Shown here: positions 25,638 through 44,940 of the stretch, in pieces | How positions within the stretch are numbered: the stretch's first letter is position 1 | Layout of the letters: each line of letters opens with the position of its first letter | Translations under genes and position numbers: made by a program | Notes under the pieces: model-generated | What the model was told of the DNA's origin: nothing | Seen by the model: the letters and a program-made list of their open reading frames with translations, nothing else | Databases searched by the model: none | Assembly (NCBI GenBank): GCA_016784025.1 | Contig: JADHVL010000001.1 | Location: 73,753 to 137,752 of the forward strand | Direction: 5' to 3' | Length of the DNA stretch: 64,000 bases | Source of the DNA: Fidelibacterota bacterium | GTDB lineage: Bacteria > Fidelibacterota > UBA8477 > JABMPR01

Positions 25638-28600
25638 ATGTTTAGAAAGCTAACCATTTGTAGTTTGATTCTGGTTATGACTGTTTTTTGCAGTCTGGGT
25701 CAGGCAATAACCCATAACGTTGCAGTTGGCGAGAGTATTAATACCGCTATTGCTGGAGCTGCAGCAGGTGACACTGTCAGTGTAGCCGAAGGAGTATTCA
25801 CTGAACTGGTAACAGTGGGTGTGGATGTTGTGCTCATGGGTGCTGGACCTGATCTGACCATTATTCAGGGACAGGAAGTAGATCCAGTTGTGAATCCAGA
25901 TCTTGCCACCACCCTGGCCAATCATGTTGTTACTATTACTGGAGCTGCCAAGGTACAGGATTTAACTGTACGGCATGGTACCTATGGCTCAAGCAATGGT
26001 TCCGGAATTTCCACAAGTGGTGATGGAGCACATTTGTTCAATCTTCACGTTACCAAGAATTTAATCAATGCCGCCAAAAAGGGAGCTGGAATCCTTTTAG
26101 ATGGCCAAAATAATCTCGTTGAGAGTTGTACAATTGATAGCAATGAGTGCATTAGTCGAGGTGGCTCGGGACTATTTGCTGCCCAGAGAAATGGTCATCA
26201 GATAATTAATACGACGATTACCAACAATATCGGTACTGATGGTGCCCTGGAATTTTGGGGAAATTCAGACCAAACCGCTGAGATCATCAATTGCACAATA
26301 AGTGGCAACGAAGGTGGTGGGCTGCTTATTAGTGAACGGCGTGCTGGTGTCACTGGCTATATAAAAAATAACATCATCGCCAATAATACAGTATATGATG
26401 TGCTCGTCACTCATAAAGTAGAGGGTGTAAACACAGCGGATCTTGTCGGTGACAACAACATAATTGGTGATTCGACGGGATTGACCATCGAGTTGGGAAG
26501 CTATTCAAACATCTACGGTACTACAGATCTTAACCTGGCTACCATTCTTGCAGATAATAGTACACAGTATGGAACTCAAACTCTAGCATTGAATCCTGGA
26601 AGTATTGCCATTGATGCTGGAGATGCAACCGCCATTAATGGTGTTGATGTTCCACTCAATGATCAGAGAGGCTACCCCAGAATAAGTCCTATTGATATTG
26701 GCGCTTTTGAATATGGTGCTGATGGAGCTGGCGTTTTGGTCATCAGTGCACCCAATGGTGGCGAAATCTGGTTACAGGGAACTGCACATGATATTACCTG
26801 GTCCAGCGATAATGTAACAAACGCAAAACTAGAGTACTCAACAGATGCAGGAGCTACCTGGGTAGAAATAGCTGCCTCAGTAGATGCCAGTCTGGGAACC
26901 TATGCCTGGACACTTCCTATCGCGGATTCACCTACCTGTCTGGTTAAGATTACAGATGTTGATGATGCCACTGTCTCAGATGAATCTGATGCAGCTTTCT
27001 CAATCGTATCACCTTATGTCACTCTCACCGCTCCAAATGGTGGCGAAGAATGGCAAGTGGGAATGGATTACGAGATTACCTGGGATTATGGATTTATTTC
27101 CAATGTACAGATCGAGTATACCAGTGATGGTTCAACCTGGACTGAACTTGCTGCTACTGTAGACGCAACTCTAGGTACTTATACCTGGACAATTCCTAAC
27201 GACCTATCTGCCATTTGTAGTGTTCGTCTTACAGTAGTGGAAAATGGAACTGTATCCGATGCAAGTGATGCAGTCTTCTCGATAGTATTACCAGTCATTT
27301 CAATCGCCGATGCCCGTGCTGATGCAAATGCCGACCTGGTACCAGATAATCTTGGAAATTTAGTTCACGTAATCGGTGTAGTAACCTCACCTGACTATGG
27401 TGGCTATTACCGGGCTTATCATATTGGAGATGAAACCGCCGGAATCGTGCTGCATGCCTCTGGTACTGACCTTGAACTCCGGGTAGGAGATGAGGTCGAG
27501 GTCTTTGGTGAGGTCAGTCAATACAATGGTTTGACCCAACTTGAGGTAACTGCTGCTGACGTGACTGTCCTGAGTACACATAATGCCCGGACTGCTACAC
27601 TTATCACGCTGGATCAATTAGGTGAAGCAACTGAAGGATCCTTCGTGAAAGTGGATGACGTCTACCTCGTTGAGCCAGGCTTGTGGCCTGCTCATGGTGA
27701 TAGCGAAAGTCTTGATCTGACGGATGGAACCAATACGGTTACCCTGAGAATTGACAGTGATACACATCTGGATGGCTGGTATCCACCACAGGGACTTATG
27801 AGTATTCGTGGTGTCGTGTCTCAGTACGATTCAAGTGATCCACGTGATGGCGGCTATCAGTTGATGGGAACTCTCCGCCATGACTTTGTAGATATGGGAG
27901 CTGGCGGTAATGAAATTGAAGTCGCTGCAGGTATGTATGCCATATCAAACGCTCTGGCTACAGCTGGTGCAAGAGACATTCTTGTCCTGACAACCGATGG
28001 GGGTTTGTACACAGATACCACCTTTATAGTGAATAAGCCCATCACAATCAAAGCCGCTGACGGTCTTCTGGAGAAACCTGTACTGGAATTTGCCTACGGA
28101 GAAGGGGATACCACTGAGAACCTGATTCGTGCCTGGGCAGATCTGACTCTGGAGGGACTTGTTCTAGGTCAGCCTGATCTGACAACAGCTACCGACACAA
28201 TGGGTATTTTTGTTGTGTACAGTGATACACTCATGGATTGGGGACAACCAGGTATCAACAATCTTGTTGTCAATGATTGTGATTTCAGGAATGCTGACAA
28301 AGCCATCAGGCAGCAATTCTTGGAAAACACTTCGGATGGTACCACTCTGGATACACTGAGTATTACCAACAGTACTTTTTCAAATTTCTTGTTGGCCAGA
28401 CCCCTTGATTTTACTGGAGATAGTAACAATCCGAGCGAAATCTATACCATTCCTGCAGCCTCATATGTCCTCATAGAGGATTGCTCGTTCAGGAATATGA
28501 TCCTGCCAATAAGAATAGCGAACTATGACGATGGTAGCAGACCATCCTTGGTTACAATCAATCATTGTACCTTTTATAATACAGCCAATAACCATTGTAT

Positions 28601-30140
28601 GAAAATTTTTGGCAGTGACGAGGGATCATTTGTTGGAAACCTGATTTTCTCCAATGTTCAACGTTGGAATGTGACCAAAAATATAGTTGATCCAATTGAT
28701 GCCTATCCAGATTCACTCCATTATAGTGGCTGGTTTAATTTCGATTCACGCAACAATGATATGGTCGCTGCTGCAAGCAATTGTATCGGTGTGGCTGACC
28801 CCATGTTTGCCGATCCTCTGGCAGGTGATTTCCGTCTCGCAGTCGGATCCGCCTATATCGGTGCTGCCAGTGATGGTGACAATATTGGTGATCGCAACTG
28901 GGGTACCTTTGTATCGAATACTGCACCTGTGATCACAGACATTCCAGCTCAATTCACTGGTGAAGATACAATTCTGGTAGTTCCTATTGTTGTTGTTGAT
29001 GCTGAAGGGGATGCCTTACAGTATTCCGCGACTTCAGATGAAGCCAATGTAGTACCATCATTCCTGGTTGATGCCATGCTTACCCTGACACCTGCTGCAA
29101 ATTGGAGTGGTTCAGCTAATATCTCCGTTGTTGTAAGCGATGGTGTATTGGCGGACACGGCTAACTTTGTGCTCGTCGTTGGCCCAATCGATGACTTACC
29201 TGTAGTTGTCAGTCCCTTTGCAGATGTAATGGTTGATGAAGATGCTGCTGACCTGACTATTGGTGATCTCGATACCGTCTTTGTTGATGTAGATGAATCA
29301 CTTGGTTTTGAAGGTGTGAGTCTCAATGAAGATCTGGTGACTGCAAATATCACCGATGGTGTTGTTACATTACACTTTGTTGCGAATGCATGGGGGAGCA
29401 CTGAAGTTGTATTCATTGCTTCCAATCCCGTGACACGTGAAACAGCTTCAGATACCATGATGGTAACTGTAAATGCAATCAATGATGCTCCAACAGATTT
29501 CGCCTTGAATACACCAGAAGATGCTACTACGGTTACGATCACAGCAGCTTCATTGGGCGATACACTATGGTTTACCTGGACTGACCTTATCGATGTGGAT
29601 GGTGATGAGCTTGAGGTTACACTTGATGGCTCAGAAGCGTTAGGTTTCTTGAGCACCGACGTCATGTTCATGGGCGATTCGGCTGCCTACATCACCTATT
29701 CAGCCCTGGCAGATGCCCTTCCAGATAATGGTGTGGTATCAGGAAGTTGGACCCTGTCGATATCTGATAATATCTCTGATCCTGTAGGCGCATCGAATGG
29801 TCCACTTTCACTGAGTATCGATGCCACAGCTGTTGGTCTTCATGCATCAGGCATGATTCCTGATGAGTTTGTGCTTGAAGCGAATTATCCCAACCCCTTC
29901 AACCCTGCAACCACACTGAGCTTTGGTATTCCGGAAGCCTCACAGGTTGTATTGAGTATTTATGATCTCAAGGGTCGTATGGTATCAACGATTGTAAATG
30001 ATAATAAAGAAGCAGGTTATCATACAGCAATCTGGAATGGTACAAATCAAAATGGACAACCTGTTGGTGCTGGTATGTATATTTACCGCATCCAGGCAGG
30101 ATCATTTGGGCAAGCCCGGAAAATGATCCTTCTCAAATAA
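25638..30140 (+). CDS. Giant multidomain surface protein: two beta-helix modules, tandem Ig-like repeats, OB-like module, cadherin-like repeats, T9SS CTD
   Basis: 1500 aa, AAGGAG RBS, signal peptide. N-terminal beta-helix ending in LNDQRGYPR..IDIGAFEY. Two ~90-aa repeats (APNGGE.W..G....ITW). Second beta-helix (KPITIKAADGLLEKPVLEF). Acidic cadherin-like repeats. CTD NYPNPFNPATTLSF. Confidence 0.75.
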   Translation: MFRKLTICSLILVMTVFCSLGQAITHNVAVGESINTAIAGAAAGDTVSVAEGVFTELVTVGVDVVLMGAGPDLTIIQGQEVDPVVNPDLATTLANHVVTITGAAKVQDLTVRHGTYGSSNGSGISTSGDGAHLFNLHVTKNLINAAKKGAGILLDGQNNLVESCTIDSNECISRGGSGLFAAQRNGHQIINTTITNNIGTDGALEFWGNSDQTAEIINCTISGNEGGGLLISERRAGVTGYIKNNIIANNTVYDVLVTHKVEGVNTADLVGDNNIIGDSTGLTIELGSYSNIYGTTDLNLATILADNSTQYGTQTLALNPGSIAIDAGDATAINGVDVPLNDQRGYPRISPIDIGAFEYGADGAGVLVISAPNGGEIWLQGTAHDITWSSDNVTNAKLEYSTDAGATWVEIAASVDASLGTYAWTLPIADSPTCLVKITDVDDATVSDESDAAFSIVSPYVTLTAPNGGEEWQVGMDYEITWDYGFISNVQIEYTSDGSTWTELAATVDATLGTYTWTIPNDLSAICSVRLTVVENGTVSDASDAVFSIVLPVISIADARADANADLVPDNLGNLVHVIGVVTSPDYGGYYRAYHIGDETAGIVLHASGTDLELRVGDEVEVFGEVSQYNGLTQLEVTAADVTVLSTHNARTATLITLDQLGEATEGSFVKVDDVYLVEPGLWPAHGDSESLDLTDGTNTVTLRIDSDTHLDGWYPPQGLMSIRGVVSQYDSSDPRDGGYQLMGTLRHDFVDMGAGGNEIEVAAGMYAISNALATAGARDILVLTTDGGLYTDTTFIVNKPITIKAADGLLEKPVLEFAYGEGDTTENLIRAWADLTLEGLVLGQPDLTTATDTMGIFVVYSDTLMDWGQPGINNLVVNDCDFRNADKAIRQQFLENTSDGTTLDTLSITNSTFSNFLLARPLDFTGDSNNPSEIYTIPAASYVLIEDCSFRNMILPIRIANYDDGSRPSLVTINHCTFYNTANNHCMKIFGSDEGSFVGNLIFSNVQRWNVTKNIVDPIDAYPDSLHYSGWFNFDSRNNDMVAAASNCIGVADPMFADPLAGDFRLAVGSAYIGAASDGDNIGDRNWGTFVSNTAPVITDIPAQFTGEDTILVVPIVVVDAEGDALQYSATSDEANVVPSFLVDAMLTLTPAANWSGSANISVVVSDGVLADTANFVLVVGPIDDLPVVVSPFADVMVDEDAADLTIGDLDTVFVDVDESLGFEGVSLNEDLVTANITDGVVTLHFVANAWGSTEVVFIASNPVTRETASDTMMVTVNAINDAPTDFALNTPEDATTVTITAASLGDTLWFTWTDLIDVDGDELEVTLDGSEALGFLSTDVMFMGDSAAYITYSALADALPDNGVVSGSWTLSISDNISDPVGASNGPLSLSIDATAVGLHASGMIPDEFVLEANYPNPFNPATTLSFGIPEASQVVLSIYDLKGRMVSTIVNDNKEAGYHTAIWNGTNQNGQPVGAGMYIYRIQAGSFGQARKMILLK
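26738..27287 (+). repeat. Tandem duplication of a ~90-aa Ig-like domain inside the 1500-aa gene
   Basis: ISAPNGGEIWLQGTAHDITWSSDNVTNAKLEYSTDAGATWVEIAASVDASLGTYAWTLP.. is followed by LTAPNGGEEWQVGMDYEITWDYGFISNVQIEYTSDGSTWTELAATVDATLGTYTWTIP... Boundaries are approximate. Confidence 0.6.
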
Positions 30141-30168
30141 GTTGAGATAAAGGTTCAAAATTAAATAG

Positions 30169-30201
30169 GGGGCAGTCTTATTATTAGACTGCCTCTTTTT
30201 T
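30169..30201 (+). terminator. Rho-independent terminator after the 1500-aa gene
   Basis: GGGGCAGTCT (30169-30178) pairs with AGACTGCCTC (30186-30195), with loop TATTATT. A T-run follows to 30201. Confidence 0.8.
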
Positions 30202-30342
30202 GAAATTCATTAAATATTTGGTTTCCTCCTTTTTGAGGAACTCCAGAATTTGTCTTAAATGGGGTCTTATCGTAGTACAGATAATGCCCCTGAATGAATC
30301 GTATCCAAAGATTTATCACCTGGAATTTTAAGGAGAGGCAAT

Positions 30343-33249
30343 ATGCCACAATCCAGAATAATGACTAAGCTTATTAAAGGTGCCATACTATTGGCTTTGA
30401 TCATTCAAACCACAGTATTGGCTGATCAAACGGGTAAAATTTCTGGAATTGTTCGGGATATTGAAACTGAGGAAGGGCTGATTGGTGCCAACGTTGTCAT
30501 TAATGAGCGTTGGGTGGGGGGAGAGATCGAACCCATAAGTAGACCCAGGGGAGCCGCCACAGATTTGGATGGCCGCTTCTATATCATTAATCTTGAACCA
30601 GGTTTTTACAATGTGGAAGTCCATATGATGGGCTATCAGTCAAAAATGATTGAAAGGGTGCGCATAGACGTCGATAAAACTACTGAATTATTCTTTGATG
30701 TCAGTTCCGAAGCACTCCTTATGGATGATATTTTAGTTACTTCCTTCCGCTCAGATATGATCCAGCGGGATCTTACTGCGACCAAGCAGAATTACATCAT
30801 GTCAGAACTTGAAGAAGTCGCTGGAATAAGTGATGTTCAGGACATAATCGACTTAAACGCCGATATCGTTGACGATAATGTTCGAGGGGGTCGTGAAGCG
30901 GAAACTCAATACCTGATTGGTGGAGCCAGTATTGTAAACCCTCTATCGAATAAGGCTTCCTTTAAGCCCATGACATCAGGTTTGCAGGCTGTTGAAGTAT
31001 TTACCTCAGGTTTTTCAGCTGAATATGGAAACGCCCAATCCGGTGTCATTAATATGGTTCCCAAAACAGGCGGTAAACGCTGGAGTACCAAGGTTAATTA
31101 TTCCGGAACATTACCTCATTATAATCACTGGGGCGGATCGGCCTGGAGTGAGGATACCAGACCTCACGATCTGTTTGGCGGAGACGCTGAGAATTGGCTT
31201 CAGGTCAGTCAACAGGATTCCAGTCAATCCCTGATAAACTGGAATAGTAACGGCTCCTATGCCAATTACGTGGATCTTGAAAATGCTACCCATGAGGACA
31301 GTCTCAAAGTGGCCGAGTTTGCTCGGGCTCAATACCTGGCTTTTGCCAGACAGATTGGGTTGGCCTATGATGAAGTGACTGATTACCGGATTGATCTTTC
31401 TACTGGAGGACCTGTATCTGATAAGACAAGAATCTTTCTGGCCGTCAGACAACAGGTAGATGGTACCAAAGTTTTGACAGCCTTTCCAAATAAATCAAGA
31501 CAACTGATGACAAACTTTTCATGGGCTCCCTCTGTGGAAAACAAGTTCATCATCTCCATGAATTATTATACCTCCGAGAAACTCAACTGGAGCGTGGGGA
31601 GTAGGTATGTCAAAATCTTCAATCCTGACTATGGTCCCCATCGTGATCGAAACCAGGCTGCGGATTATGGACTTCGCTGGGAACATATATTTAGTCAAAA
31701 ATCCTATATGGAGATGAACCTGAGGAGTTTCACTACGGATTATGCTCACAGATATCCTATCCGTGATCCTGAATGGATGGGTTCAAATTGGGGTAGCAAT
31801 TTTAATACACCGATCTGGTTGCCTGGCGATCTGAATAATAAGGTTCTTGAGAATAACTATTCTGCCGAGAAGACCAAGACAGTGAGGTTTTATGGTTCCT
31901 GGAATAAGCAACTCAATATCAATAATTTGATGAAAGCTGGTTGGCAGCTGTTTACGTATGATCTGCACACAGAGCGGTCGGCTTCAGCCAGTTCACCCAA
32001 TGCCCAAATTCTGACATACCACGAGAAACCCTATGAGGGAGCATTCTATGTTCAGGACAAGATGGAGTTTGAGGGCCTGGTTGCGAATATTGGACTACGA
32101 TTTGACTTCTATAATTATAATTACAAGTATTTCACAAATCTTTTTCATCCCACAGCCAATCCAAATTATGATTCCAGTTTACCACCTGGCTTGCGAGGCC
32201 CTTTTAACGATCCTGAATTAGCAGAAACAAGCCAAACCGAATTGGTCTACCATCTGCAACCCAGGATGGGGTTTTCTTATCCGGTCAATGAGCGATCGGT
32301 GATTCATGTGAATTATGGAAGTTTTACGCAGCGTCCCAATTTTGACAAAATCTATCGACGCTACTATGATATTACAGGCAACGAGGTCGATGAACTGGGT
32401 AATGCCCGTCTGAAGCCAGAGCGAACCAACGCCTATGATTTTGGATTGGTCCAAGGACTTCCCTTTGGTTTCAGGATTGATGTCTCAACCTATTATAAGG
32501 ATGTGAAAAACCTGGTTCAGACAGTCTTTTACGAAGACTCAACAGGGTCAGACTATAAAGGATTTGCCAACCTGGATTACGCCAATATCAAAGGATTCAG
32601 TATGAACCTTGTGAAAAAAACGGGTAATCTAAAAGTGAGCGTGCGCTACAATTTTCAGAAAGCCGTAGGTAAAAATCCGACACCTTTTGATGCAACACTC
32701 TCTTATAAGGAAGGATCTGACGGGCGTTATGATTTTGATCATGAGAATAATCGAGCACCTGAACCTGAAGATGTGATCATGAACTATAATCGGCGAAACA
32801 GAATTATCACTAACATTCAATATAAAACACCTACAGAATTTGGACCACAGATCTTTGGAGGACTACCTTTCTCAGGTATCTCAATGAATGCTAAACTCAC
32901 ATATCAGGAAGGAAGACCATATACGTACTACGGACCCGATGAATCAATCGGTCCTCAGTTTAATAAAGTCGGTCCAGATGAGCATAATCTCCAATTTATG
33001 TTTGCTAAAAATATGCGCTTTGGTAAACAGAAGCTGGCCCTGAACCTTACCATCTTTAATGTTCTGAATGAGAAGGTGTTCGCCTATTCCTTGTTTAAAG
33101 ATTTTGAAGCGGTTGAAGAATATGAAGCAGGCGACATTGATGCTGTGATGGTTGAAAGTGATTATTCACCCATGGATTTCCCCCAGCACATCCGCTACTA
33201 TCAAAATGCACCTCGCTACTATCGCCTTGGCGTTCAGTGGACTTTTTAA
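30343..33249 (+). CDS. TonB-dependent receptor-type outer-membrane barrel with carboxypeptidase-regulatory-like domain (cassette 2, gene 1)
   Basis: 968 aa, AAGGAG RBS. Collinear with 4022..6943 (GKISGIVRDIETEEGLIGANVVI, FYIINLEPGFYNVEVHMMGY, VEVFTSGFSAEYGNAQSGVINMVPKTG). C-terminal ...YRLGVQWTF. Confidence 0.85.
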   Translation: MPQSRIMTKLIKGAILLALIIQTTVLADQTGKISGIVRDIETEEGLIGANVVINERWVGGEIEPISRPRGAATDLDGRFYIINLEPGFYNVEVHMMGYQSKMIERVRIDVDKTTELFFDVSSEALLMDDILVTSFRSDMIQRDLTATKQNYIMSELEEVAGISDVQDIIDLNADIVDDNVRGGREAETQYLIGGASIVNPLSNKASFKPMTSGLQAVEVFTSGFSAEYGNAQSGVINMVPKTGGKRWSTKVNYSGTLPHYNHWGGSAWSEDTRPHDLFGGDAENWLQVSQQDSSQSLINWNSNGSYANYVDLENATHEDSLKVAEFARAQYLAFARQIGLAYDEVTDYRIDLSTGGPVSDKTRIFLAVRQQVDGTKVLTAFPNKSRQLMTNFSWAPSVENKFIISMNYYTSEKLNWSVGSRYVKIFNPDYGPHRDRNQAADYGLRWEHIFSQKSYMEMNLRSFTTDYAHRYPIRDPEWMGSNWGSNFNTPIWLPGDLNNKVLENNYSAEKTKTVRFYGSWNKQLNINNLMKAGWQLFTYDLHTERSASASSPNAQILTYHEKPYEGAFYVQDKMEFEGLVANIGLRFDFYNYNYKYFTNLFHPTANPNYDSSLPPGLRGPFNDPELAETSQTELVYHLQPRMGFSYPVNERSVIHVNYGSFTQRPNFDKIYRRYYDITGNEVDELGNARLKPERTNAYDFGLVQGLPFGFRIDVSTYYKDVKNLVQTVFYEDSTGSDYKGFANLDYANIKGFSMNLVKKTGNLKVSVRYNFQKAVGKNPTPFDATLSYKEGSDGRYDFDHENNRAPEPEDVIMNYNRRNRIITNIQYKTPTEFGPQIFGGLPFSGISMNAKLTYQEGRPYTYYGPDESIGPQFNKVGPDEHNLQFMFAKNMRFGKQKLALNLTIFNVLNEKVFAYSLFKDFEAVEEYEAGDIDAVMVESDYSPMDFPQHIRYYQNAPRYYRLGVQWTF

Positions 33250-33258
33250 GGGACTCCT

Positions 33259-35538
33259 ATGAAGAATTATTTATATAACCAGAATTCTACTGAGAGTGCT
33301 ATTTCAAAATGCTTAAAGTTGGTATTGCTTATCACATTCCTGATGAGTTTTACATCAACATTATGGGCACAACGTGAACGTCTGGTTCATGATCGTGGCA
33401 CTCTCCATGAGACGTTTTATAACACGGGGGTTTTCGTGGCTCCATTCAAAAATAATGGAATTGAATCTACCAATACTCCCATGACTGAATGGCCAGCCTG
33501 GTCCAGGACTGTGATTGACAATATTGAATATTATGGTCAACACAACGGTCTGGGAGGGGGTATCCATATTGGTGTGAACCATCCAGGAAAGTTAGGTGTA
33601 GATCAAAAACACTTTTCCTTTGCCGGGATGGTTGGTTCAGGTGGTCCAGAGATGGAATATGAAGTTTGGTGCTGGCCTCTTGAATTCTGGAAAGAAACCA
33701 ACTATCCACTGCAGGATGATGGTAGTCTCAATCCGGATTTTGATCCCAATGAGGCCGAACAACTCATTCATACCAGATTTGCTACCAGTGTTGGTATGAC
33801 CGTGACGCGGGTCACTCGCCAATACAGCTATCCCAGGCTGGATGATATCATCTTCCACGAATACGAATTAGAATTTACTGGAAATACCGATTATGATGAA
33901 ACCACTATTGAGCAGGATTCAGTAGATACCTATGTGGATGCCCTGTTTGCATTTCATATGGCCATACCACCTAACATGATGAGCTTTCAGAGAACATTTG
34001 GGTCATGGTACTGGAAACCGGGCATTTTCAGAGGTGATGTATACAACAGCTTTGATACTGATTATGCGATGTTTTATTGTCAAAGCATCAGCACCCAGCA
34101 AGACCACTCCAAACCTTATCATCCTGAACCAGATGAAGATCTGTTCTGGGAGTTTGCGTCTACCGGTTTAAATGGTGGTGGATTGCTGGCACCCCAGGCT
34201 GCTGGTCATACTGCCCTGCATTGGGATAGGGAACATCTAACAGTTCTAGATACGACAGACACTACTTTTCATCTGACCACCATGGAGTATGCACAACATG
34301 CGTCCGACTTTGAATGGGATGAAGGCTTAACCATTAAGCAACCCTGGGGAATTATCCAGAATGCTGGTTGGTTTGTTTCTACTGGGCTCATCAATAAACC
34401 ACACTACAAGACGCATAACCGGGCCCAGGGTAAATTTCCCGAACTTGATGCGCCTGATCCAAATGAGCATCCAATGTTTTGGGTGGGAAGACCCAAGTTT
34501 ACACCTAGAAGTGCAGAAGCACCGGCCTCGTCTTTTATTTGTGGTCCTTATACCATCAACCGCGGTGATAAACTGAATTTTAGTTTTGCACAGGTTGTTG
34601 GATACGGCTCAGAACCAGGAAAAAGGGTATTTGGAGGTGGGCAGAAATCAGATCTATGGGGGACAGCCCCTGATATCAATGCTGAACTCACAGTAGGGGA
34701 TAGTACTTTCAGATATCTGGATACTTTTGGATATCCCGATTATGTAAATGCAGAAACCGGTGTTATCTCTGTACAGGATGTAGCTCGGGAAGCGTGGAAA
34801 GCCTATACTGGCTGGGATATTGAGCATGATTCCCTCTGGGCTGAAGATTCTGTGGTTTGTTGGCCAGATTGGACCGAGCCCCACGGCTTGTATGATGTCT
34901 ATATTCCAGTTCCAGCTCCAGGCTTAAAAGTGAGCAATGATGAAGAGGCCAATGTACACGTGACATGGTCTAGAGCTGTGGAAGATTTCACGCATGCTTC
35001 TTCCGCCCTGGACTCATTCTATGTGTTTAGAAGTTTCAATCGGCTGGGACCATGGAAACGTCTGGTCACTATTGCAGCCGGGGATGTCAATTCAGAGGAT
35101 TACTATGAATACATCGATGACAATCTGGACTTCGCCTTTACAGATGTAGCCTTCTATGCAGTGACCTCAGTTGATGTCAACGGAAATCAGAGTGGCAAAA
35201 CAAATATGACTCAACATCGAAGGGATATTGGACCTGAGGGTGATCTTGAAAATATTTTTATTGTCCCCAATCCCTTTATCCTGGAGAGTGGTTTTCAAAA
35301 TGCGGCACTTGCGAATGCAGTCAGCATTTTCGGACTTCCCGAGAAATGCTCTATCCGTGTCTATAGTTTTGCTGGCCAAAGGGTTCAGAGTATTGAGCAT
35401 GACAATTCTGAGAGTGGATCGCTCACATTTAATCTGGTAAATGAGAACAACATGCTCCTGGCTCCAGGTGTTTATTTTGTTGCCATTCAAACTCCAGAGG
35501 GACAACAGGCCATGACAAAATTTGTGATTATTCGCTAA
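33259..35538 (+). CDS. Orphan secreted protein with variant T9SS-like C-terminal domain (cassette 2, gene 2)
   Basis: 759 aa. Collinear with 6976..9339 (YYGQHNGLGGGIHIG, HFSFAGMVGSGGPE, DDIIFHEYELEFTGNTD, GGGLLAPQAAG, FAQVVGYGS). C-terminus IVPNPFILESGF...CSIRVYSFAGQRVQSIEH...GVYFVAIQTPEGQQAMTKFVIIR. Confidence 0.6.
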   Translation: MKNYLYNQNSTESAISKCLKLVLLITFLMSFTSTLWAQRERLVHDRGTLHETFYNTGVFVAPFKNNGIESTNTPMTEWPAWSRTVIDNIEYYGQHNGLGGGIHIGVNHPGKLGVDQKHFSFAGMVGSGGPEMEYEVWCWPLEFWKETNYPLQDDGSLNPDFDPNEAEQLIHTRFATSVGMTVTRVTRQYSYPRLDDIIFHEYELEFTGNTDYDETTIEQDSVDTYVDALFAFHMAIPPNMMSFQRTFGSWYWKPGIFRGDVYNSFDTDYAMFYCQSISTQQDHSKPYHPEPDEDLFWEFASTGLNGGGLLAPQAAGHTALHWDREHLTVLDTTDTTFHLTTMEYAQHASDFEWDEGLTIKQPWGIIQNAGWFVSTGLINKPHYKTHNRAQGKFPELDAPDPNEHPMFWVGRPKFTPRSAEAPASSFICGPYTINRGDKLNFSFAQVVGYGSEPGKRVFGGGQKSDLWGTAPDINAELTVGDSTFRYLDTFGYPDYVNAETGVISVQDVAREAWKAYTGWDIEHDSLWAEDSVVCWPDWTEPHGLYDVYIPVPAPGLKVSNDEEANVHVTWSRAVEDFTHASSALDSFYVFRSFNRLGPWKRLVTIAAGDVNSEDYYEYIDDNLDFAFTDVAFYAVTSVDVNGNQSGKTNMTQHRRDIGPEGDLENIFIVPNPFILESGFQNAALANAVSIFGLPEKCSIRVYSFAGQRVQSIEHDNSESGSLTFNLVNENNMLLAPGVYFVAIQTPEGQQAMTKFVIIR

Positions 35539-35558
35539 ACGCGACCCAGGGAGAAAGA

Positions 35559-36533
35559 ATGATGAAATTGAATCAAATCAAATCAATAGTCATGCCCTTG
35601 TGTCTGTTGTTAGCGTTTTCAACAATTGATGCTCAGACAACAAAAGAGGGGACAACCGCATTTCAATTCTTGAAGGTAAAACCAGATGCCCGGGCAAATG
35701 GAATGGGAGAGGCCTTCACGGCAGTGGCTGATAATGCTGATGGTGTCTATTACAACCCTGCTGGGCTAACCGACGCAGGCAAATATGAATTGTCTATGTC
35801 TATGTACAACTATTTTGCCGATGTCCGGAACATGGGAGGTGTGGCTCTAGTGGGAACTCGGTTAGGCACCTTTGCCATACAGTATCAATACAATGATATT
35901 GGTCAAATACTACATACAACCAATGTAACCAGCCTTGCGGATTACCAGGCACTCTCAAGTTCTCAGGATTATTTTAGTCCCAATCATCTTATGCTGGGTC
36001 TTACTTATGCCAGAGCCGTGACTGATAAATTCAGCTTTGGTATCACTACCAAGTTTGTACAGGAAGACTTGATCTATTCTAAAGAGGATCAAATCCTTTT
36101 TGATGGTGGTGTGCTCTATCGTTCAGGTTGGAGAACATTACGTACCAGTGCGGTCGTTCGTCATTTTGGAGATGACATCGTATTTGAAGAGAAAGGCTTT
36201 TCAGCACCTCAGGTCCTCATTCTCGGTTTTGGTGTTGAATGCTTTGGTCCTGAAGGTGGCTTGATCGGGACAAATTCGTTTCAGAGGCTTACACTTGCTG
36301 CAGATCTTCTGGCACCGCGTGATTATGATCAACAGTATAACATCGGTGCAGAGTGGGCTTTGAAAGAAAGGCTGTTCCTGCGCGGAGGATATAAAATTAA
36401 TTATATCACTGAGGGACTCAGCCTGGGAGCTGGAGTATCCCTGGGAAATTTTAAATTCGATTATGCATATAATGATTATGATGACTTCCTGCAATATGTT
36501 CAGCGTTTTAGTCTGAGCTATGTGATGAGATAG
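35559..36533 (+). CDS. PorV/PorQ-family outer-membrane beta-barrel (cassette 2, gene 3)
   Basis: 324 aa. GTTAFQFLKVKPDARANGMGEAFTAVADNADGVYYNPAGL is the hallmark N-terminus. Paralogue of 9352..10419. Confidence 0.7.
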   Translation: MMKLNQIKSIVMPLCLLLAFSTIDAQTTKEGTTAFQFLKVKPDARANGMGEAFTAVADNADGVYYNPAGLTDAGKYELSMSMYNYFADVRNMGGVALVGTRLGTFAIQYQYNDIGQILHTTNVTSLADYQALSSSQDYFSPNHLMLGLTYARAVTDKFSFGITTKFVQEDLIYSKEDQILFDGGVLYRSGWRTLRTSAVVRHFGDDIVFEEKGFSAPQVLILGFGVECFGPEGGLIGTNSFQRLTLAADLLAPRDYDQQYNIGAEWALKERLFLRGGYKINYITEGLSLGAGVSLGNFKFDYAYNDYDDFLQYVQRFSLSYVMR

Positions 36534-36545
36534 ACTGGATATAAG

Positions 36546-38063
36546 ATGAATAAAATTAAATCAATCGTCGTGATATTAACGCTAGTAAGCATTGCTTCTT
36601 TCCCTCTGGTGCTTATGGGGCAAGGGAATGGAGAAATGATTCTCTTGCATGGGATGGCAAACCTTGAAACCGAAACACCCTGGACTCTGGCAAGAGCCGG
36701 TGCAGGAGTTGCTGGGGATGGATCTCTGAATGATATCTTTCGCAATCCAGCAGGATTGGTCGGATTGAAGGGCTTTCAATTTCAATTTAATGGTCATCTC
36801 TCGCGACGAAATCAATTTGAAAATATGGTCATGATGGAAGATCGAGTTGACCCAATTATTCTGCGATTTATCGACCGGACCTATCAGCCCCTGCACAGCA
36901 ACAATGGTGTATGGGTAAATGATCTTTTCGCGGGAATGACTGTCGATGATATTACCGTAGATGATACAGGACTTGATTTCTGGCATCGCGGAGCTGGAGA
37001 CTGGCAGGAACAACTTGTCTCAGCTGGTGTCTCAAATGTGAGTCTGGGATTACCCGTTGAAGTTTTTGGTGGACGAACCATTGCATTTGGCCTCGCTTTT
37101 CGAAACCAGAATATCTACGATTACGATCGGAATGAAGCTTATCTCAATCCAGTAATAGGGGATTGGTCTGATCAAGGTCTTGAAACTGACGGTGATACTT
37201 TGGATTTGCATCAGTTCGAATACATCCGTAAAAGAGATGGTGATCTGACCATGCTTCAGGCGACAGTTGCTATTGAGTTGCTTGATTGGATGAACTTCGG
37301 GATTGGGCTAAAATCAGTTTCAGGAAACACTGCTGATAACATATCCTGGGCGCATTACGGTGATTACAGATGGCGTACTAATGGTGGATTTTCCTTTACA
37401 TATGACGATACCTCAGCGGCTTTAGCAAATTTTACTGAGAGTGAATGGTCCTCAAACATGATTGATCTGTCAGTTCAGTTTCATACACCAGATTTTTCAG
37501 CAGGATTTCAATTCGACCTTCCAACCAAAATGATACGGGACTATTCTGATGAGGATTGGTTCATCCAACCTGATGATTCCATGTTTGTATTGGATAGTGC
37601 TGATTTGACTATGGAAGTATCAATGCCCTTGAAAACCAGCTTTGGAATTGCCGTGAAACCTAAAGATGCGCTGGAAGTGTTTTTCGACCTCGTCTGGAAT
37701 CCTTTATCAGAGTCAGCGATCGATATGGGCGATACCAGTCTGGCACTGGATGGGTACCAGCCCTGGATTGATACCTTCACCATGAAGTTGGGGATTGTAT
37801 ATAAAATTGATGAGTATGCTAGAGTTGCAGCTGGATACCAGACAGGAACTCGTGAATTTCATGGTTGGCGTTCACCCTTCATTGATAGGGGACCAGAGCA
37901 AGATATGTTTACTGCAGGAATCTCGGTAGATGCGCTTATGGGGACAATCGATATTGGATACTCCTGGCAAACACTGAAGTATATTGATTACTTTGCTACC
38001 AGTATGCACTATGTGACCCAAAAGCACAATCGGATCATGCTGGGGTATACTCTTAAGCTCTAA
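36546..38063 (+). CDS. FadL/PorV-like outer-membrane beta-barrel (cassette 2, gene 4)
   Basis: 505 aa with a signal peptide. ARAGAGVAGDGSLNDIFRNPAGL motif. C-terminal ...IMLGYTLKL. Same position and size as 10439..11962. Confidence 0.55.
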   Translation: MNKIKSIVVILTLVSIASFPLVLMGQGNGEMILLHGMANLETETPWTLARAGAGVAGDGSLNDIFRNPAGLVGLKGFQFQFNGHLSRRNQFENMVMMEDRVDPIILRFIDRTYQPLHSNNGVWVNDLFAGMTVDDITVDDTGLDFWHRGAGDWQEQLVSAGVSNVSLGLPVEVFGGRTIAFGLAFRNQNIYDYDRNEAYLNPVIGDWSDQGLETDGDTLDLHQFEYIRKRDGDLTMLQATVAIELLDWMNFGIGLKSVSGNTADNISWAHYGDYRWRTNGGFSFTYDDTSAALANFTESEWSSNMIDLSVQFHTPDFSAGFQFDLPTKMIRDYSDEDWFIQPDDSMFVLDSADLTMEVSMPLKTSFGIAVKPKDALEVFFDLVWNPLSESAIDMGDTSLALDGYQPWIDTFTMKLGIVYKIDEYARVAAGYQTGTREFHGWRSPFIDRGPEQDMFTAGISVDALMGTIDIGYSWQTLKYIDYFATSMHYVTQKHNRIMLGYTLKL

Positions 38064-38073
38064 CAAGACCCTC

Positions 38074-38180
38074 GGACATTGAGTTCACTTGTCAGGTCAC
38101 AGTTCGCAGAACGACGACTGATCGAAATGTCCAGTCCTTCGGCTGGTTAAACTCCGACCTCGACAGGCTCAGTATCCAGA
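38074..38180. repeat. Hairpin-family members downstream of cassette 2
   Basis: 38074-38131: GGACATT GAG[44-nt loop]TCGA AATGTCC has the same 7-bp stem as 17588-17612 but an expanded loop. 38152-38180: CTCCGACCTCGACAGGCTCAGTATCCAGA carries the reverse core. Confidence 0.55.
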
Positions 38181-38220
38181 ATCAATTCACCCCGAATTCA
38201 CTTGAAAACCCTTTGTTATA

Positions 38221-38236
38221 GTATATATTAGTATAC
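38221..38236. promoter_or_regulatory. Palindrome GTATA-TATTAG-TATAC (6-nt spacer), candidate operator/promoter element
   Basis: Inverted repeat directly upstream of the sulfatase gene, and downstream of the hairpin repeats as at 17.7 kb. Confidence 0.45.
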
Positions 38237-38274
38237 CAATTATACCTAAAGTGAATGAGGGATACAATTATTCC

Positions 38275-39822
38275 ATGTCACATCAATTAAAAACTGAATC
38301 CAAATCAATGTCTCGCCGCGAATTCATGGCGGGGATTATTGCAGCTGGAAGCCTTGTCGCCTGTGGTGGTAGTTCTGTGCTCAGGAGCACAAAAAAAACA
38401 CCTGAAATTAGAAAACGACCCAACATAATTCTAATGATGACAGACGATATGGGTTGGGGTGATGTTGGCTGGAATGGAAATACTATTATTAAAACTCCCA
38501 ATCTGGATAGCCTAGCTACTGCCGGAGTTCGTTTGGATCGTTTTTATTCAGGTGCACCGGTTTGCTCGCCTACACGCGCTACTTGCCTTACAGGACGCCA
38601 TTATTTTAGATATGGGATATGGAAAGCAAACCAGGGTGCGCTTCCGGTACAAGAAGTTACGCTTCCCAAATTGCTCAAACAAGCAGGGTATGCCACCGGT
38701 CACTATGGAAAATGGCATATGGGTAGCCCAAACCGTAATTATACAGGCAAAAATTCAGGCGATAAACATCTCGCCCTGCCGGAATGGTTTGGGTACGATG
38801 AATATTTTGTCACCCATCATGCCGTAGCCACCTGGGATCCTTACGGACCTAAAGGCGAACGAGCCGCAACGACTGAAAACCCGTATTGGCAAAATGGTGA
38901 ACGCGTACTAGAGAATGTTAGCGGTGATGATAGTCGTATCATGATGGATAGAATCCTACCCTTTGTTAATCAAGCCGTTGAGGATGAGAAACCATTTTTT
39001 ACAGTGGTCTGGTTCCATGCTCCACACACCCCCATCAAAGCTGGACCTGAATATCGCGAGATGTACAGCAAGTACTCAGAACTTGAGCAGAATTATTATG
39101 GTTGCATTACTGCACTGGATGATCAGGTCGGTCGGTTAAAAAATGAATTAGCAAAACTCGGTGTGCTTGATGATACCATGTTATGGTTTTGTAGCGATAA
39201 TGGACCTGAACGCAGGAATCCAGGAATAACTGGGGGCCACCGTGGGAGAAAACGAAGCCTATTCACCGGAGGGGTAGGATCACCGGCCTTTATGCATTGG
39301 CCAAATGGTCCTGGAAAGGCCGGGAGCATAATGGATAGACCAGCATCTACACTGGATTATCTGCCCACTATTCTCGAAACAGTTGGTGTTAAATATCCAG
39401 ATACACGTCCTCTGGATGGATTGAATATTCTGCCACTTCTGGCTGGGACACAATCCAAACGAGATAAACCGATTCCCTTCAGATATCAGTCTGCAAAGGG
39501 AACTATGTTTGATTCGCCTACAGCGGGAATGATTGATGATCAGTTTAAATTTCTGACCAACTATTCTGATTCAGGTGAAGAAGATTTATTGTTTGACCTC
39601 TATGCAGATCGTTTTGAAGAAAATAATGTTATTAAGGATCATCCAGAACACGCTCGGAAGTTAAAAAAGGAGTTATCTGCCTTCTTAACCTCTGCTGAAA
39701 ATAGCCATGCCGGGGGAGACTATGCTGATCCTGATTTTGAACCCCTGGGCAAGTGGAGTCCCACGCTTGGTGGTTGGAAAGTCAGCAACAGACAAAGAAA
39801 TAAGAAGAAAAAGAATAACTAG
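38275..39822 (+). CDS. Formylglycine-dependent sulfatase, Tat signal plus lipobox
   Basis: The start is uncertain: the ORF track gives GTG 38251, and ATG 38275 and ATG 38308 are also possible. SRREFMAGIIAAGSLVACGG, PNIILMMTDDMGWGD, and C-S-P-T-R in PVCSPTRATCLTGRH. Confidence 0.85.
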   Translation: MSHQLKTESKSMSRREFMAGIIAAGSLVACGGSSVLRSTKKTPEIRKRPNIILMMTDDMGWGDVGWNGNTIIKTPNLDSLATAGVRLDRFYSGAPVCSPTRATCLTGRHYFRYGIWKANQGALPVQEVTLPKLLKQAGYATGHYGKWHMGSPNRNYTGKNSGDKHLALPEWFGYDEYFVTHHAVATWDPYGPKGERAATTENPYWQNGERVLENVSGDDSRIMMDRILPFVNQAVEDEKPFFTVVWFHAPHTPIKAGPEYREMYSKYSELEQNYYGCITALDDQVGRLKNELAKLGVLDDTMLWFCSDNGPERRNPGITGGHRGRKRSLFTGGVGSPAFMHWPNGPGKAGSIMDRPASTLDYLPTILETVGVKYPDTRPLDGLNILPLLAGTQSKRDKPIPFRYQSAKGTMFDSPTAGMIDDQFKFLTNYSDSGEEDLLFDLYADRFEENNVIKDHPEHARKLKKELSAFLTSAENSHAGGDYADPDFEPLGKWSPTLGGWKVSNRQRNKKKKNN

Positions 39823-39851
39823 TCACCGAATCAAGAAATTGAGGAAATGAA

Positions 39852-41462
39852 ATGAGATCATTAATTACCAGAGTCGCCATTGCATCAATTCTAGTGCTCA
39901 TATTGCTAACTGCCTGTATGCCTCCTAAAGCTACTCCAGAGCCAACTTCTGAAGCTCCGATAGCTCCTACGGTAGCACCAAAAGTCATGACAGGTGCGTA
40001 TGAACCTAACTGGGAATCCCTGGCACAAAATGATATCCCTGAATGGATAAAAGATGCCAAGTTTGGTGTTTACACCCATTGGGGCGTGTACTCGGTCATT
40101 GCTAAAGGTGGAGCTGGTGCACCACTAAAATCAATCTACAAAGAGGGTCAGGGTAAAAAAGAAACCTATGATCACTATCTAAAGAATTTTGGTAAAGCTG
40201 AAGATGTTGGCTATGTAGATATCATTCCCATGTTTACTGCTGAGAAATTCGATGCAGAGGAGTGGGTGGATGTCATGGCGGATGCCGGAGCCAAATTTGG
40301 TGGCATCTGTGTTGTTCATCACGATGGCTTTCTGCTCTGGGATTCGAAAGTAAATCGCTGGAACTCAAAAAATATGGGTCCTAAAAGAGACATCTTTGGT
40401 GAAATTACCAAAGCAGTCCGTGCTCGCGGAGATATGAAACTGGCGGCAACCTTTCATCATGGCCGAACCTATGGATTTGCCACAGGTGGAAAACTGGATA
40501 TTTGGACTGAAGAAGAAAGAGCCAAATTTGACCTGTTCGATCCTCAGTACAAAGATTTTTACTGGCATGATGGTCATTCTGACCGTGCAGAATTTTCCAA
40601 ACAATGGCGTGCAAAGGTCATCGAGGTTGTAGATAAATATGATCCTGATTTTCTGTGGTTTGATGGTTTGAATACTTCAATGAAAAATGACACACCTCCC
40701 GTCTCATATGTTCAGGACGCTATCTCTCACTTCTTCAATAAAGCCGAGAAATCGGGGAAAGAGGTTGTGGTTGCCAACAAAAACGCAGGGGGCAAGTTCA
40801 ATTTTCCAGATGATTTCGGACTTCTCAGTTATGAAAATGGTCGTGATATGGCCGGCGATGTACAACCCTGGTTCCTCATCGATCGTGCCATTGGTTATCC
40901 CTGGGCTTATGAAGCAGACAAGAAATATAGAGATGGTCCAGAGTATCATACTCGCAGTCTCATCGATCTGGTGAGTCGTGGTGGAGTATTTCTGCTATCC
41001 CTGACTCCAAAAGGTGATGGCTCTATCCCAGCACGTGAAAAAGAGATCATGGCCGGAATTGGCGATTGGTTGGAAATTAATGGAGAAGCGATATATAATA
41101 CCCGTCCCTGGAAGCTATATGGGGAAGGACCTACAGATCTGACTGCCATGAAAAAAACCGGCAAGGGTACCTTGAAGCCAGGTTGGAATTATCGCAAAAA
41201 ACTCACTTCTCAGGATATTAGATTTACACAATCAAAAGATGGCAAAACCCTCTACGCAACGGCTTTGGAATGGCCTGAAAATGGCAAAATAGTTGTCACT
41301 TCACTCAGGGATGGTTCTGAGCTATACCCAGGAAAGATCAACTCAGTTGAAATGTTGTCCAGTTCGGAAAAAGTTAAATGGTCCAGGACATCAGAGGGAC
41401 TGGAGATTCAATTTCCTCAGGAAAAGCCGTGCACCACAGCTTACGCATTTAGAATTAATTAA
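39852..41462 (+). CDS. GH29-type alpha-L-fucosidase, lipoprotein
   Basis: 536 aa. Lipobox LLTAC. FGVYTHWGVYSV, KFGGICVVHHDGFLLWDS, DFLWFDG and SKNGVFLLSL-type blocks are typical of GH29. Confidence 0.8.
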   Translation: MRSLITRVAIASILVLILLTACMPPKATPEPTSEAPIAPTVAPKVMTGAYEPNWESLAQNDIPEWIKDAKFGVYTHWGVYSVIAKGGAGAPLKSIYKEGQGKKETYDHYLKNFGKAEDVGYVDIIPMFTAEKFDAEEWVDVMADAGAKFGGICVVHHDGFLLWDSKVNRWNSKNMGPKRDIFGEITKAVRARGDMKLAATFHHGRTYGFATGGKLDIWTEEERAKFDLFDPQYKDFYWHDGHSDRAEFSKQWRAKVIEVVDKYDPDFLWFDGLNTSMKNDTPPVSYVQDAISHFFNKAEKSGKEVVVANKNAGGKFNFPDDFGLLSYENGRDMAGDVQPWFLIDRAIGYPWAYEADKKYRDGPEYHTRSLIDLVSRGGVFLLSLTPKGDGSIPAREKEIMAGIGDWLEINGEAIYNTRPWKLYGEGPTDLTAMKKTGKGTLKPGWNYRKKLTSQDIRFTQSKDGKTLYATALEWPENGKIVVTSLRDGSELYPGKINSVEMLSSSEKVKWSRTSEGLEIQFPQEKPCTTAYAFRIN

Positions 41463-41471
41463 GAGGCCGAT

Positions 41472-44827: not shown

Positions 44828-44857
44828 CGTTTCATGTACTTTCTCACTTGGTTTGAT

Positions 44858-44889
44858 CGTGAAAGGGTGTGGAACAACGCCCTTTCACG
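44858..44889 (+). terminator. Perfect 10-bp hairpin after the PKD protein gene (terminator-like, no U-tract)
   Basis: CGTGAAAGGG (44858-44867) pairs with CCCTTTCACG (44880-44889) across a 12-nt loop. It contains the GTG at 44869 that the ORF track uses as a start. Confidence 0.4.
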
Positions 44890-44940
44890 AGAGGAAGTAA
44901 GAATTTAATAATTCAAATCGCTCAATTAAGGCCTTCCACG

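Follow-up and report, generated by a model that had tools for sequence, protein, structure and literature searches.

Closest described systems

To our knowledge, SusC/SusD pairs are the accepted genomic marker of polysaccharide utilization loci (PULs) and are confined to Bacteroidota. Oceans, sediments and soils are rich in Marinimicrobia (SAR406), Ignavibacteria, Calditrichota, KSB1, Latescibacterota and Gemmatimonadota. As far as we know, these six lineages have many carbohydrate-active enzymes (CAZymes) and sulfatases and no SusD, and how they capture and import glycans has so far been puzzling. Here we analyze a 64,000-nt stretch of DNA from a Fidelibacterota bacterium (contig JADHVL010000001.1, positions 73,753 to 137,752 of the forward strand; hereafter the window), which carries two copies of a four-gene cassette encoding a TonB-dependent transporter (TBDT), a protein that we call X, a PorV/PorQ-family outer-membrane barrel and a BamG/FadL-like barrel. 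We read these cassettes, with a probability of about 0.6, as two functional paralogs of a conserved uptake module in a fucoidan-type locus, in which X, exported through the T9SS (type IX secretion system) and anchored by its C-terminal sorting domain (CTD), would be a SusD-like partner of the transporter.

The cassette resembles SusC/SusD (RagA/RagB) in its layout. A TBDT of about 1000 aa with an N-terminal carboxypeptidase-regulatory-like domain is encoded first and the gene for a presumed surface partner follows directly; the unit occurs in multiple copies, lies within CAZyme/sulfatase loci and is duplicated inside a locus; and transporter and partner co-evolve tightly (r 0.93 here). The parts, however, differ. 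The window has no SusD/RagB-family protein, as none of its 37 open reading frames (ORFs) of at least 150 aa, all but three of them on the + strand, has a Pfam match to SusD, and neither TBDT copy matches the SusC/RagA model TIGR04056 of NCBIfam at E<=0.01. X is beta-rich, lacks a lipobox and has a predicted T9SS CTD, whereas SusD is an alpha-helical tetratricopeptide repeat lipoprotein, and two FadL-superfamily barrels are obligatory in the cassette.

The second point of comparison is the T9SS attachment complex of Porphyromonas gingivalis, in whose PorQ-PorZ and PorV-PorU pairs a 14-strand barrel holds a retained CTD (PMC10202324, PMC10947112). As there, a CTD surface protein is combined with a PorV/PorQ-family barrel: the C-terminus of X is nearest that of PorZ, and gene 3 encodes a PorV_fam member. 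Gene 3 is nevertheless far under the PorQ and PorV equivalog cut-offs, X shares with PorZ the C-terminal FN3/CTD region alone, and CTD retention, known for those pairs, is a prediction for X. Furthermore, the X-barrel pair is encoded with a TBDT in nutrient-utilization loci and in multiple copies, and is not a single housekeeping T9SS component. In the type-B CTD/PorP-SprF arrangement (SprB-SprF, PG1035-PorP) a T9SS cargo gene is likewise linked to the gene of a dedicated PorV-like barrel, which sets the final surface location of the cargo (PMC9143113, PMC12618676). The CTD of X is, however, type-A-like (TIGR04183), the cassette barrels belong to the PorV/PorQ and FadL/BamG types and not to PorP/SprF, and the type-B cargoes known so far serve as adhesins or in motility rather than as partners of a transporter.

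Finally, BamG, a FadL-type barrel that serves surface proteins as an attachment platform and not as a channel (PMC12578637), is taken to be the closest solved relative of the gene 4 product (E 8.7e-10), which also has an NCBIfam match to it. Gene 4 scores only 18-38 bits against an equivalog cut-off of 250, its product is about 75 aa longer than BamG and, compared with gene 3, contains some 110 inserted residues, and it is encoded in an uptake cassette rather than with genes of the beta-barrel assembly machinery (BAM) and co-evolves with the CTD of X.

On this comparison the cassette probably corresponds functionally to SusC/SusD, with T9SS anchoring in place of the surface lipoprotein. In the open-access literature we found neither this cassette nor any TBDT with a T9SS-anchored partner described. 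The novelty lies in the composition of the cassette; that a degradation locus should contain a transporter cassette in duplicate is nothing unusual.

Two collinear cassettes

The initial annotation had described the genes at 30343-38063 as a second, diverged copy of a cassette found earlier in the window, with the same gene order and similar gene sizes. The ORFs were found exactly where it had placed them:

4022-6943, + strand: cassette 1 gene 1, TBDT, 973 aa
6976-9339, + strand: cassette 1 gene 2 (X), 787 aa, whole-length homolog of 33259-35538
9352-10419, + strand: cassette 1 gene 3, PorV/PorQ-family barrel, 355 aa
10439-11962, + strand: cassette 1 gene 4, BamG/FadL-like barrel, 507 aa
30343-33249, + strand: cassette 2 gene 1, TBDT, 968 aa
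33259-35538, + strand: cassette 2 gene 2 (X), 759 aa
35559-36533, + strand: cassette 2 gene 3, PorV/PorQ-family outer-membrane barrel, 324 aa
36546-38063, + strand: cassette 2 gene 4, BamG/FadL-like barrel, 505 aa

The four ORFs of cassette 2, all on the + strand, are separated by gaps of 9-20 nt. Each protein of cassette 1 aligns with its counterpart in cassette 2 over the full length and collinearly in BLASTP: the TBDTs with 38% identity (662 bits), the X proteins with 40% (528 bits), the gene 3 products with 38% (223 bits, E 2e-75) and the gene 4 products with 24% (160 bits, E 1e-47). When 200 shuffled copies of each cassette-2 protein were used instead, the best scores were 24-28 bits, so that the real pairs score 6- to 24-fold above the best shuffled one. 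The conserved blocks that had been aligned by eye in every pair thus hold up, and the motifs quoted as examples are present, YDGQHNTMGGGIHI and YYGQHNGLGGGIHI in the gene 2 pair and GTTAFQFLKVNPTARSAAMG and GTTAFQFLKVKPDARANGMG in the gene 3 pair. Cassettes 1 and 2 are therefore confirmed as collinear paralogs of four genes each. At the DNA level all that is left of the likeness is four short collinear patches (38-213 nt, 68-84% identity), which argues for an old divergence and for the absence of recent gene conversion.

The four gene products

All eight cassette proteins have a Sec signal peptide without a lipobox cysteine. In the TBDTs the PF00593 barrel was detected well above the Pfam gathering score (76.8 bits in copy 1 and 63 bits in copy 2, cut-off 27). 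Copy 2 has PF13715 and PF13620 (CarboxypepD_reg) matches of 42-43 bits, and copy 1 also has CarboxypepD_reg domains. The Plug domain PF07715 is less clear, with 16.9 bits in copy 1 (cut-off 23.9) and no listed match in copy 2, but the plug region (residues 152-259) is aligned by NCBIfam TBDT models and distant relatives of the family do match Plug. The protein thus starts with a signal peptide and a CarboxypepD_reg domain, followed by a divergent plug and a barrel of the 22-strand type. A single-sequence search for solved relatives gave only PhuR (E 1e-3). Reading by eye suggests a TonB-box-like motif after the CarboxypepD_reg domain, with the counterpart EDVVVTA (residues 121-127) in cassette 1 as judged from the pairwise alignment:

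30724-30744, + strand: putative TonB-box-like motif DDILVTS of cassette 2, residues 128-134, directly past CarboxypepD_reg

X has no Pfam family above cut-off in either copy, and its NCBI labels are "hypothetical protein" or "T9SS type A sorting domain-containing protein". It can nevertheless be divided into three parts (coordinates for copy 2):

33322-34902, + strand: X N-domain, residues 22-548, beta-rich in the model, about 90 invariant residues
34903-35238, + strand: X FN3-like domain, residues 549-660, model confidence (pLDDT) 85-96, Foldseek matches to FN3 tandems with probability 1.0
35239-35538, + strand: X CTD (probable T9SS sorting domain), residues 661-759, matched by TIGR04183, the PorZ C-terminus and, in Foldseek, PorZ 5m11

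Against TIGR04183, the type-A CTD model (cut-off 23), the C-terminus scores 26.0 bits in copy 2 and 18.2 bits in copy 1; against PF18962 X scores 17.7 bits, under the cut-off of 27. The last 100 or so residues are best matched by the C-terminus of PorZ (NF052228, E 6e-7). This match covers residues 661-758 only and at 28.2 bits is far from the cut-off of 260 for the full-length PorZ equivalog, and no match to the PorU peptidase was found in X. In a full-length AlphaFold2 model (pLDDT 72.5, predicted TM score 0.76) some 520 residues form a beta-rich N-domain, after which come the FN3-like domain and the CTD; the C-terminus of the model matches that of PorZ 5m11 in Foldseek with probability 1.0. 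The matches of this model are confined to the FN3 and CTD parts. Within the N-domain, pLDDT is 80-89 over residues ~100-235 and below 50 over the highly conserved residues 46-97. A truncated model, built from 12 sequences, reached a pLDDT of 49 and had no significant Foldseek match, and a profile of X found nothing among the PDB sequences. In the family alignment the invariant motifs of this domain include QHN..G.G, WSYPD(Y/F)DD and GYPDY(V/I)N. Its most conserved N-terminal stretch, at 33349-33561 (residues ~31-101 of copy 2), has 16 invariant positions, including EWP and GQHN..G.G, and is at the same time the least confident part of the monomer model (pLDDT 29-48). This is compatible with a segment that may fold only against a partner, but is only a hint.

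Gene 3 matches the PorV_fam model NF033709 over its full length with 161.9 bits (copy 1) and 159.1 bits (copy 2; cut-off 90). Against the PorQ equivalog NF033711 the scores are 88.6 and 92.3 bits (cut-off 220) and against the PorV equivalog NF033710 they are 58.4 and 67.9 bits (cut-off 250); the closest solved relative in a profile search is PorV (6h3i_F, E 1.8e-17). These scores clearly place gene 3 in the PorV/PorQ family, as neither PorQ nor PorV proper. The gene 4 family is related to that of gene 3 (hhalign probability 97.9%, E 3.7e-13) and, judged by its profile, appears to be a larger FadL-superfamily barrel, distantly paralogous to gene 3 and extended by an insertion of about 110 residues. 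Among solved structures it comes nearest to chain F in 9HIV/9HJM, which are BAM structures from Bacteroidota. These are Bt/Pg BAM complexes in which the PDB names chain F just "Outer membrane protein"; on the strength of its length (431-434 aa) and of the NCBIfam BamG match we take chain F (9HIV/9HJ3/9HJM) to be BamG. The gene 4 profile also matches CymD, TbuX and TodX (E 1e-4 to 4e-3), and Toluene_X (PF03349) is matched with 28.2 bits in copy 1 and 17 bits in copy 2, both under the cut-off of 29.7. Against the BamG equivalog NF053685 (cut-off 250) the two copies score 38.3 and 18.5 bits; in copy 1 this match has an E of 8e-10, and its N-terminus has a motif that matches PorV_fam. This barrel is the fastest-evolving member of the cassette, with 79% (copy 1) and 73% (copy 2) identity to the orthologs in the related genome SI053_bin15 as against 85-94% for the others, although its ratio of nonsynonymous to synonymous substitution (dN/dS) is still about 0.1.

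The cassette in other genomes

A profile of X found 257 relatives among contigs taken from one genome per species, and the best 80 of the 257 loci were analyzed. These are the loci most like X copy 2, so that one subfamily is over-represented (mostly alginate-type loci), and the taxon labels of many of the metagenome-assembled genomes (MAGs) are unreliable. Among the 80, the order TBDT-X-PorV-FadL on a single strand is kept wherever the contig allows, and 55 cassettes are complete; they come from Neomarinimicrobiota, Ignavibacteria/Melioribacteraceae, Calditrichia, KSB1 and loosely labeled MAGs. The sole apparent exception to the gene order (L071) is flanked by 100-N scaffold gaps. This constancy of order and strand in 55 loci from several phyla strengthens the proposal of the initial annotation that the four genes act as one unit.

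In 111 of 112 cases the genes downstream share the strand of the cassette. The fifth gene is, in 42 loci, a DUF4957/DUF5123 beta-helix protein with a CTD. The sixth gene (the second downstream, n=52) encodes Chondroitinase_B (PL6-type) in 20 cases, Alginate_lyase in 5, Hepar_II_III_C in 3 and DUF5123 in 27. Upstream, GntR/FCD regulators are frequent, and genes for short-chain dehydrogenases are found on both flanks. The synteny and the polysaccharide-lyase neighbors together suggest that the cassette is the transport module of PUL-like loci in lineages without SusD.

How far does the family extend? Among 1.84 billion cluster representatives the X profile matched 6596 at E<=1e-3, 2131 at E<=1e-10 and 114 at E<=1e-30. 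The neighborhoods of six distant X-like proteins were sampled (25-28% identity in the two that were compared). In all six, a PorV-like barrel of 313-331 aa directly follows X, and in five a recognizable TBDT (CarboxypepD_reg and/or Plug) precedes it, four of these being complete (1015-1048 aa) and one a fragment matched by BLAST alone; in the sixth locus an unannotated fragment lies upstream of X. For three of the six, members of the 90%-identity cluster are labeled Gemmatimonadota, Latescibacterota or Handelsmanbacteria.

The fourth position in the distant triads is not FadL-like. In L085 (6351-9728), where the X-like cluster is labeled Gemmatimonadota/Latescibacterota, it is taken by a GWxTD-domain protein followed by a DUF6785 protein, and in L099 (4938-6965; cluster labeled Handelsmanbacteria) a DUF6785 protein directly follows the barrel. 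Because the fourth gene varies in this way, the core is the TBDT-X-PorV-like triad, and the BamG-like barrel marks the subfamily of the window. Accessory genes of the core triad differ by lineage.

Two further variants were seen. Copy-2-type cassettes of related marine Marinimicrobia carry an additional gene between TBDT and X (L006 779-2161, L007 779-2176, L088 8602-10008, L089 8527-9933 and L091 8523-10004). It encodes a leucine-rich repeat protein of 468-493 aa with a lipoprotein-type signal (…FIAC / …WISC) and has no counterpart in either window cassette, in which TBDT and X are only 9-32 nt apart. In L048, a Bacteroidetes-labeled MAG, a PorV-like gene that is divergent (27% identity; 1-3007, minus strand) lies beside a canonical cassette and is followed by a TBDT gene, on the opposite strand and with no X-like gene between; this may be another version of the same theme.

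Domain-wise co-evolution and the proposed mechanism

For a mirror-tree analysis X was split into its domains, and pairwise distances were compared over the cassettes. Distances of whole proteins correlate between components with r values of 0.67-0.93, the highest being that of X with the TBDT (0.93). The two ends of X behave differently. The N-domain gives r values of 0.93 with the TBDT, 0.64 with the PorV-like and 0.79 with the FadL-like barrel, and the partial r given the CTD is 0.87, 0.17 and 0.51, respectively. For the CTD the r values are 0.68 (TBDT), 0.80 (PorV-like) and 0.82 (FadL-like), and the partial r given the N-domain is 0.07, 0.63 and 0.61. A repeat in 36 loci that did not include the window copies gave partial r values of 0.86 for N-domain and TBDT, 0.74 for CTD and PorV-like barrel and 0.69 for CTD and FadL-like barrel. 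The N-domain of X thus co-evolves with the transporter and its CTD with both barrels. Conservation is similar in the two parts (0.71 in the CTD vs 0.69 in the N-domain).

The DUF5123 cargo of the fifth gene served as a control. For its CTD r is about 0 whichever component it is compared with, the distances of its body follow those of the TBDT and X (r 0.82-0.84), and body and CTD are both conserved at 0.58. The idea that the second barrel anchors this cargo was rejected, given that the cargo CTD has an r of about 0 with both barrels. Physical linkage or recombination is unlikely as the source of the domain-specific correlations because the block of X-CTD, PorV and FadL sits between two parts, TBDT plus X N-domain and the fifth-gene body, which share another history.

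We propose that the TBDT of about 970 aa imports oligosaccharides and that X is exported by the T9SS. The CTD of X would be left uncleaved and would stay bound to the PorV/PorQ-family barrel encoded next to it, as PorZ does on PorQ and PorU on PorV; the BamG/FadL-like barrel may belong to the same anchoring platform. The N-domain of X would then sit on the transporter at the surface, where it would help to capture the substrate or act as a lid. Precedents for CTDs retained on cognate PorV-like barrels are PorZ-PorQ, PorU-PorV and type-B CTDs with PorP/SprF (PMC10202324, PMC9143113, PMC12618676). These published cases and the domain-specific co-evolution support the model of an anchored X.

Several points weigh against it. 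Mirror-tree correlations among phylogenetically related sequences can stem from shared history or rates rather than from contact; the CTD scores of X lie only near the cut-off; and the T9SS core genes are not within the window, their presence being deduced from about ten CTD-bearing cargo genes. The complex, the CTD retention and the transport rest on inference and not on direct evidence. Moreover, the N-domain has no recognizable fold or ligand site, so that X could be an enzyme instead of a binding lid.

Is X a lid or an enzyme? The unit could be the same with X as a cell-surface enzyme beside the transporter, a new polysaccharide lyase, a hydrolase or another processing enzyme. X has no SusD-like tetratricopeptide repeat fold, its model is beta-rich, and many of the roughly 90 invariant residues are acidic or aromatic (E165/E167, D195/D196/E201, D227, D266, QHN, GYPDY). 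The weak Foldseek matches of the N-domain are all to CAZymes (GH94, GH116, GH174 and a polysaccharide lyase), but they are non-significant (E>0.005, TM<0.25 on the model with pLDDT 49) and carry no weight. The same invariant residues occur beside alginate/PL6-type and beside fucoidan-type genes, which fits a structural or partner-binding role better than substrate-specific catalysis, and the N-domain co-evolves very tightly with the TBDT. We therefore consider an enzymatic X unlikely.

A different view would make the cassette a specialized T9SS sorting or attachment module for the cargo of the locus, analogous to PorU/V/Q/Z, with the TBDT as a merely co-regulated neighbor. Two PorV/FadL-type barrels, a CTD protein with a PorZ-like C-terminus and a locus packed with CTD cargo genes would fit this. 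The TBDT, however, always comes first in the cassette, and no other component shows as tight a co-evolution with X, whereas the CTD of the neighboring cargo shows no correlation with either barrel. X has neither a PorU peptidase nor a full-length PorZ match, the likeness being limited to its C-terminal 100 aa, and distant triads are also found outside cargo-rich loci. A sorting module is accordingly quite improbable, and an uptake module with an anchored X remains the preferred reading.

Origin of the two copies

Component trees were built by neighbor joining on corrected p-distances with bootstraps. Among 57 cassettes the two copies form one exclusive clade for TBDT, X, PorV and FadL with 100, 100, 78 and 58% support, respectively, and in all four components copy 1 with its SI053_bin15 ortholog is sister to copy 2 with its own. 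Both copies are long branches in these trees, and closer relatives were therefore added. With four metagenomic cassettes included, a joint Marinimicrobia clade has 100, 100, 93 and 95% support. In a tree of 120 X homologs the copy-1 and copy-2 clades have 100% each and are sisters at 98%, which argues against long-branch attraction. Separate copy-1 and copy-2 subclades were recovered for X (98/98%) and FadL (98/76%). Members of the copy-2 clade are 46-50% identical to each other, and a metagenome scan for further copy-1-type cassettes gave only near-identical (93%) or distant (35-37%) loci.

Selection was measured against the SI053_bin15 orthologs, since the synonymous distance (dS) between copy 1 and copy 2 is saturated. 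For all eight genes dN/dS is 0.03-0.11, which indicates that neither copy is decaying; both cassettes are under purifying selection. An old duplication in which all four genes were kept together, as the initial annotation had proposed, is thus upheld by the joint clade, the ancient divergence and the intact ORFs, with tree congruence that is good but imperfect; the two tests that it had named, component phylogenies and a check for relaxed selection, did not refute it. The trees support a duplication of all four genes together inside the Marinimicrobia lineage, before the copy-2 clade radiated. This duplication would long predate the split between the window genome and SI053_bin15. Working against a single event of this kind, the TBDTs of three copy-2-type relatives group weakly with copy 1 (63%), the PorV subtree does not separate copy-1 from copy-2 subclades, and the trees are not maximum-likelihood trees.

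The two cassettes could instead have been gained independently, by horizontal transfer of two different family members. The raw distances that separate the two copies (2.1 for gene 4, 1.07-1.16 for the rest) are about equal to those to Ignavibacteria/Calditrichia cassettes, and the TBDT subtree is weakly discordant. Yet all four trees join both copies with the marine Marinimicrobia relatives at the high support given above, GC content is uniform over the window (0.41-0.47), and the two copies share a single co-oriented locus, which SI053_bin15 has kept, so that we regard separate acquisition as very improbable. The notion that one copy is redundant and decaying, or that the likeness is merely the domain-level one of any TBDT operon, could draw on gene 4 (only 24% identical between the copies and the fastest to evolve, at 73-80% to the ortholog vs 85-94%) but is refuted by the intact ORFs, the full-length collinear alignments far above shuffled scores, the low dN/dS in both cassettes and the third TBDT of the window (44869-47364), which is of another family (OMP_b-brl_3) and has no X or PorV partners.

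Both copies, then, are kept by purifying selection, presumably because their substrate specificities differ; it is plausible that they handle different oligosaccharides.

Surroundings in the window

The window is one co-oriented degradation locus with about ten T9SS cargo proteins (BNR/sortilin propellers, dockerin, PKD, CBM4_9, GH141-like and other beta-helix proteins), three sulfatases and four GH29 fucosidases. Two features lie downstream of cassette 2:

38251-43076, + strand: a sulfatase (Sulfatase, 188 bits) and two GH29 alpha-L-fucosidases (Alpha_L_fucos, 268 and 278 bits; Pfam)
43115-44827, + strand: probable displaced fifth gene of cassette 2, DUF5123 beta-helix + PKD + CTD cargo, 570 aa

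The sulfatase and GH29 context points to a sulfated fucan as substrate. The gene at 43115-44827 is the best match in the window to the DUF4957/DUF5123 + CTD gene that directly trails gene 4 in 42 other loci. In L088 and L089, which are copy-2-type, the DUF5123 cargo comes directly after gene 4 and before an OMP_b-brl_3 transporter, a beta-helix protein and a sulfatase, as at 44869-51395 of the window, and the genes of 38251-43076 are absent from the corresponding position. The gene at 43115-44827 is thus the probable fifth gene of cassette 2.

Together these genes make up a second transport block at 43115-51395, consisting of the DUF5123/PKD/CTD cargo, the OMP_b-brl_3 TBDT, a GH141-like beta-helix protein (14-nt overlap with the TBDT) and a sulfatase. 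Its counterparts, L088 14865-22274 and L089 14786-22199, lie directly behind cassette 2; in the window the sulfatase and two GH29 genes are inserted between the two.

Just upstream of cassette 2, at 25638-30140, is a 1500-aa beta-helix/Big_9/cadherin-like CTD protein, which has a likewise placed homolog in L088. Right after cassette 1 come four consecutive paralogous BNR/sortilin-type beta-propeller proteins (11999-19193), two with a type I dockerin (11999-13909 and 17826-19193) and two with PKD; all but one of the four end in a T9SS CTD. In a genome of Marinimicrobia one would not expect dockerins. At the start of the window (16-3824) are two overlapping CTD proteins of 454 and 820 aa with no other recognizable domain, and at the end of the locus (57553-60984) is an ABC sugar importer (ATPase, permease and periplasmic binding protein), which probably provides the inner-membrane step for the released monosaccharide. 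A scan of 29800-38500 for sigma-70 promoters and intrinsic terminators, with models that exclude FCB-type promoters, gave counts no higher than in shuffled sequence.

As to the organism, the X sequence of cassette 2 is deposited as MBC8375939.1 / MBL7120409.1 with the label "FCB group bacterium", and its 90%-identity cluster is Candidatus Marinimicrobia / Neomarinimicrobiota. The near-twin genome Ca. Neomarinimicrobiota SI053_bin15 (JABIFG010000058.1) has both cassettes with the same spacing of ~26.3-26.4 kb.

Implications

The TBDT-X-PorV-like core was met in sequences labeled Marinimicrobia, Ignavibacteria, Calditrichota, KSB1, Latescibacterota and Gemmatimonadota. We would give even odds to the broader proposal that this core is an undescribed and widespread outer-membrane nutrient-uptake complex of FCB phyla outside Bacteroidota, an independent alternative to SusD and a non-secretory role for the CTD/PorV pair. 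If so, the cassette would offer a searchable marker for PUL-like loci in lineages that lack SusD (the 2131 representatives matched by the X profile at E<=1e-10) and a concrete structural hypothesis for the uptake machine. It would also mean that the T9SS and the PorV family take part in building transporters, beyond secreting enzymes and adhesins. The window itself would be a fucoidan-type locus of a marine Marinimicrobia with two anciently diverged and selectively maintained import units, the pattern expected if different fucoidan-derived oligosaccharides need different importers.

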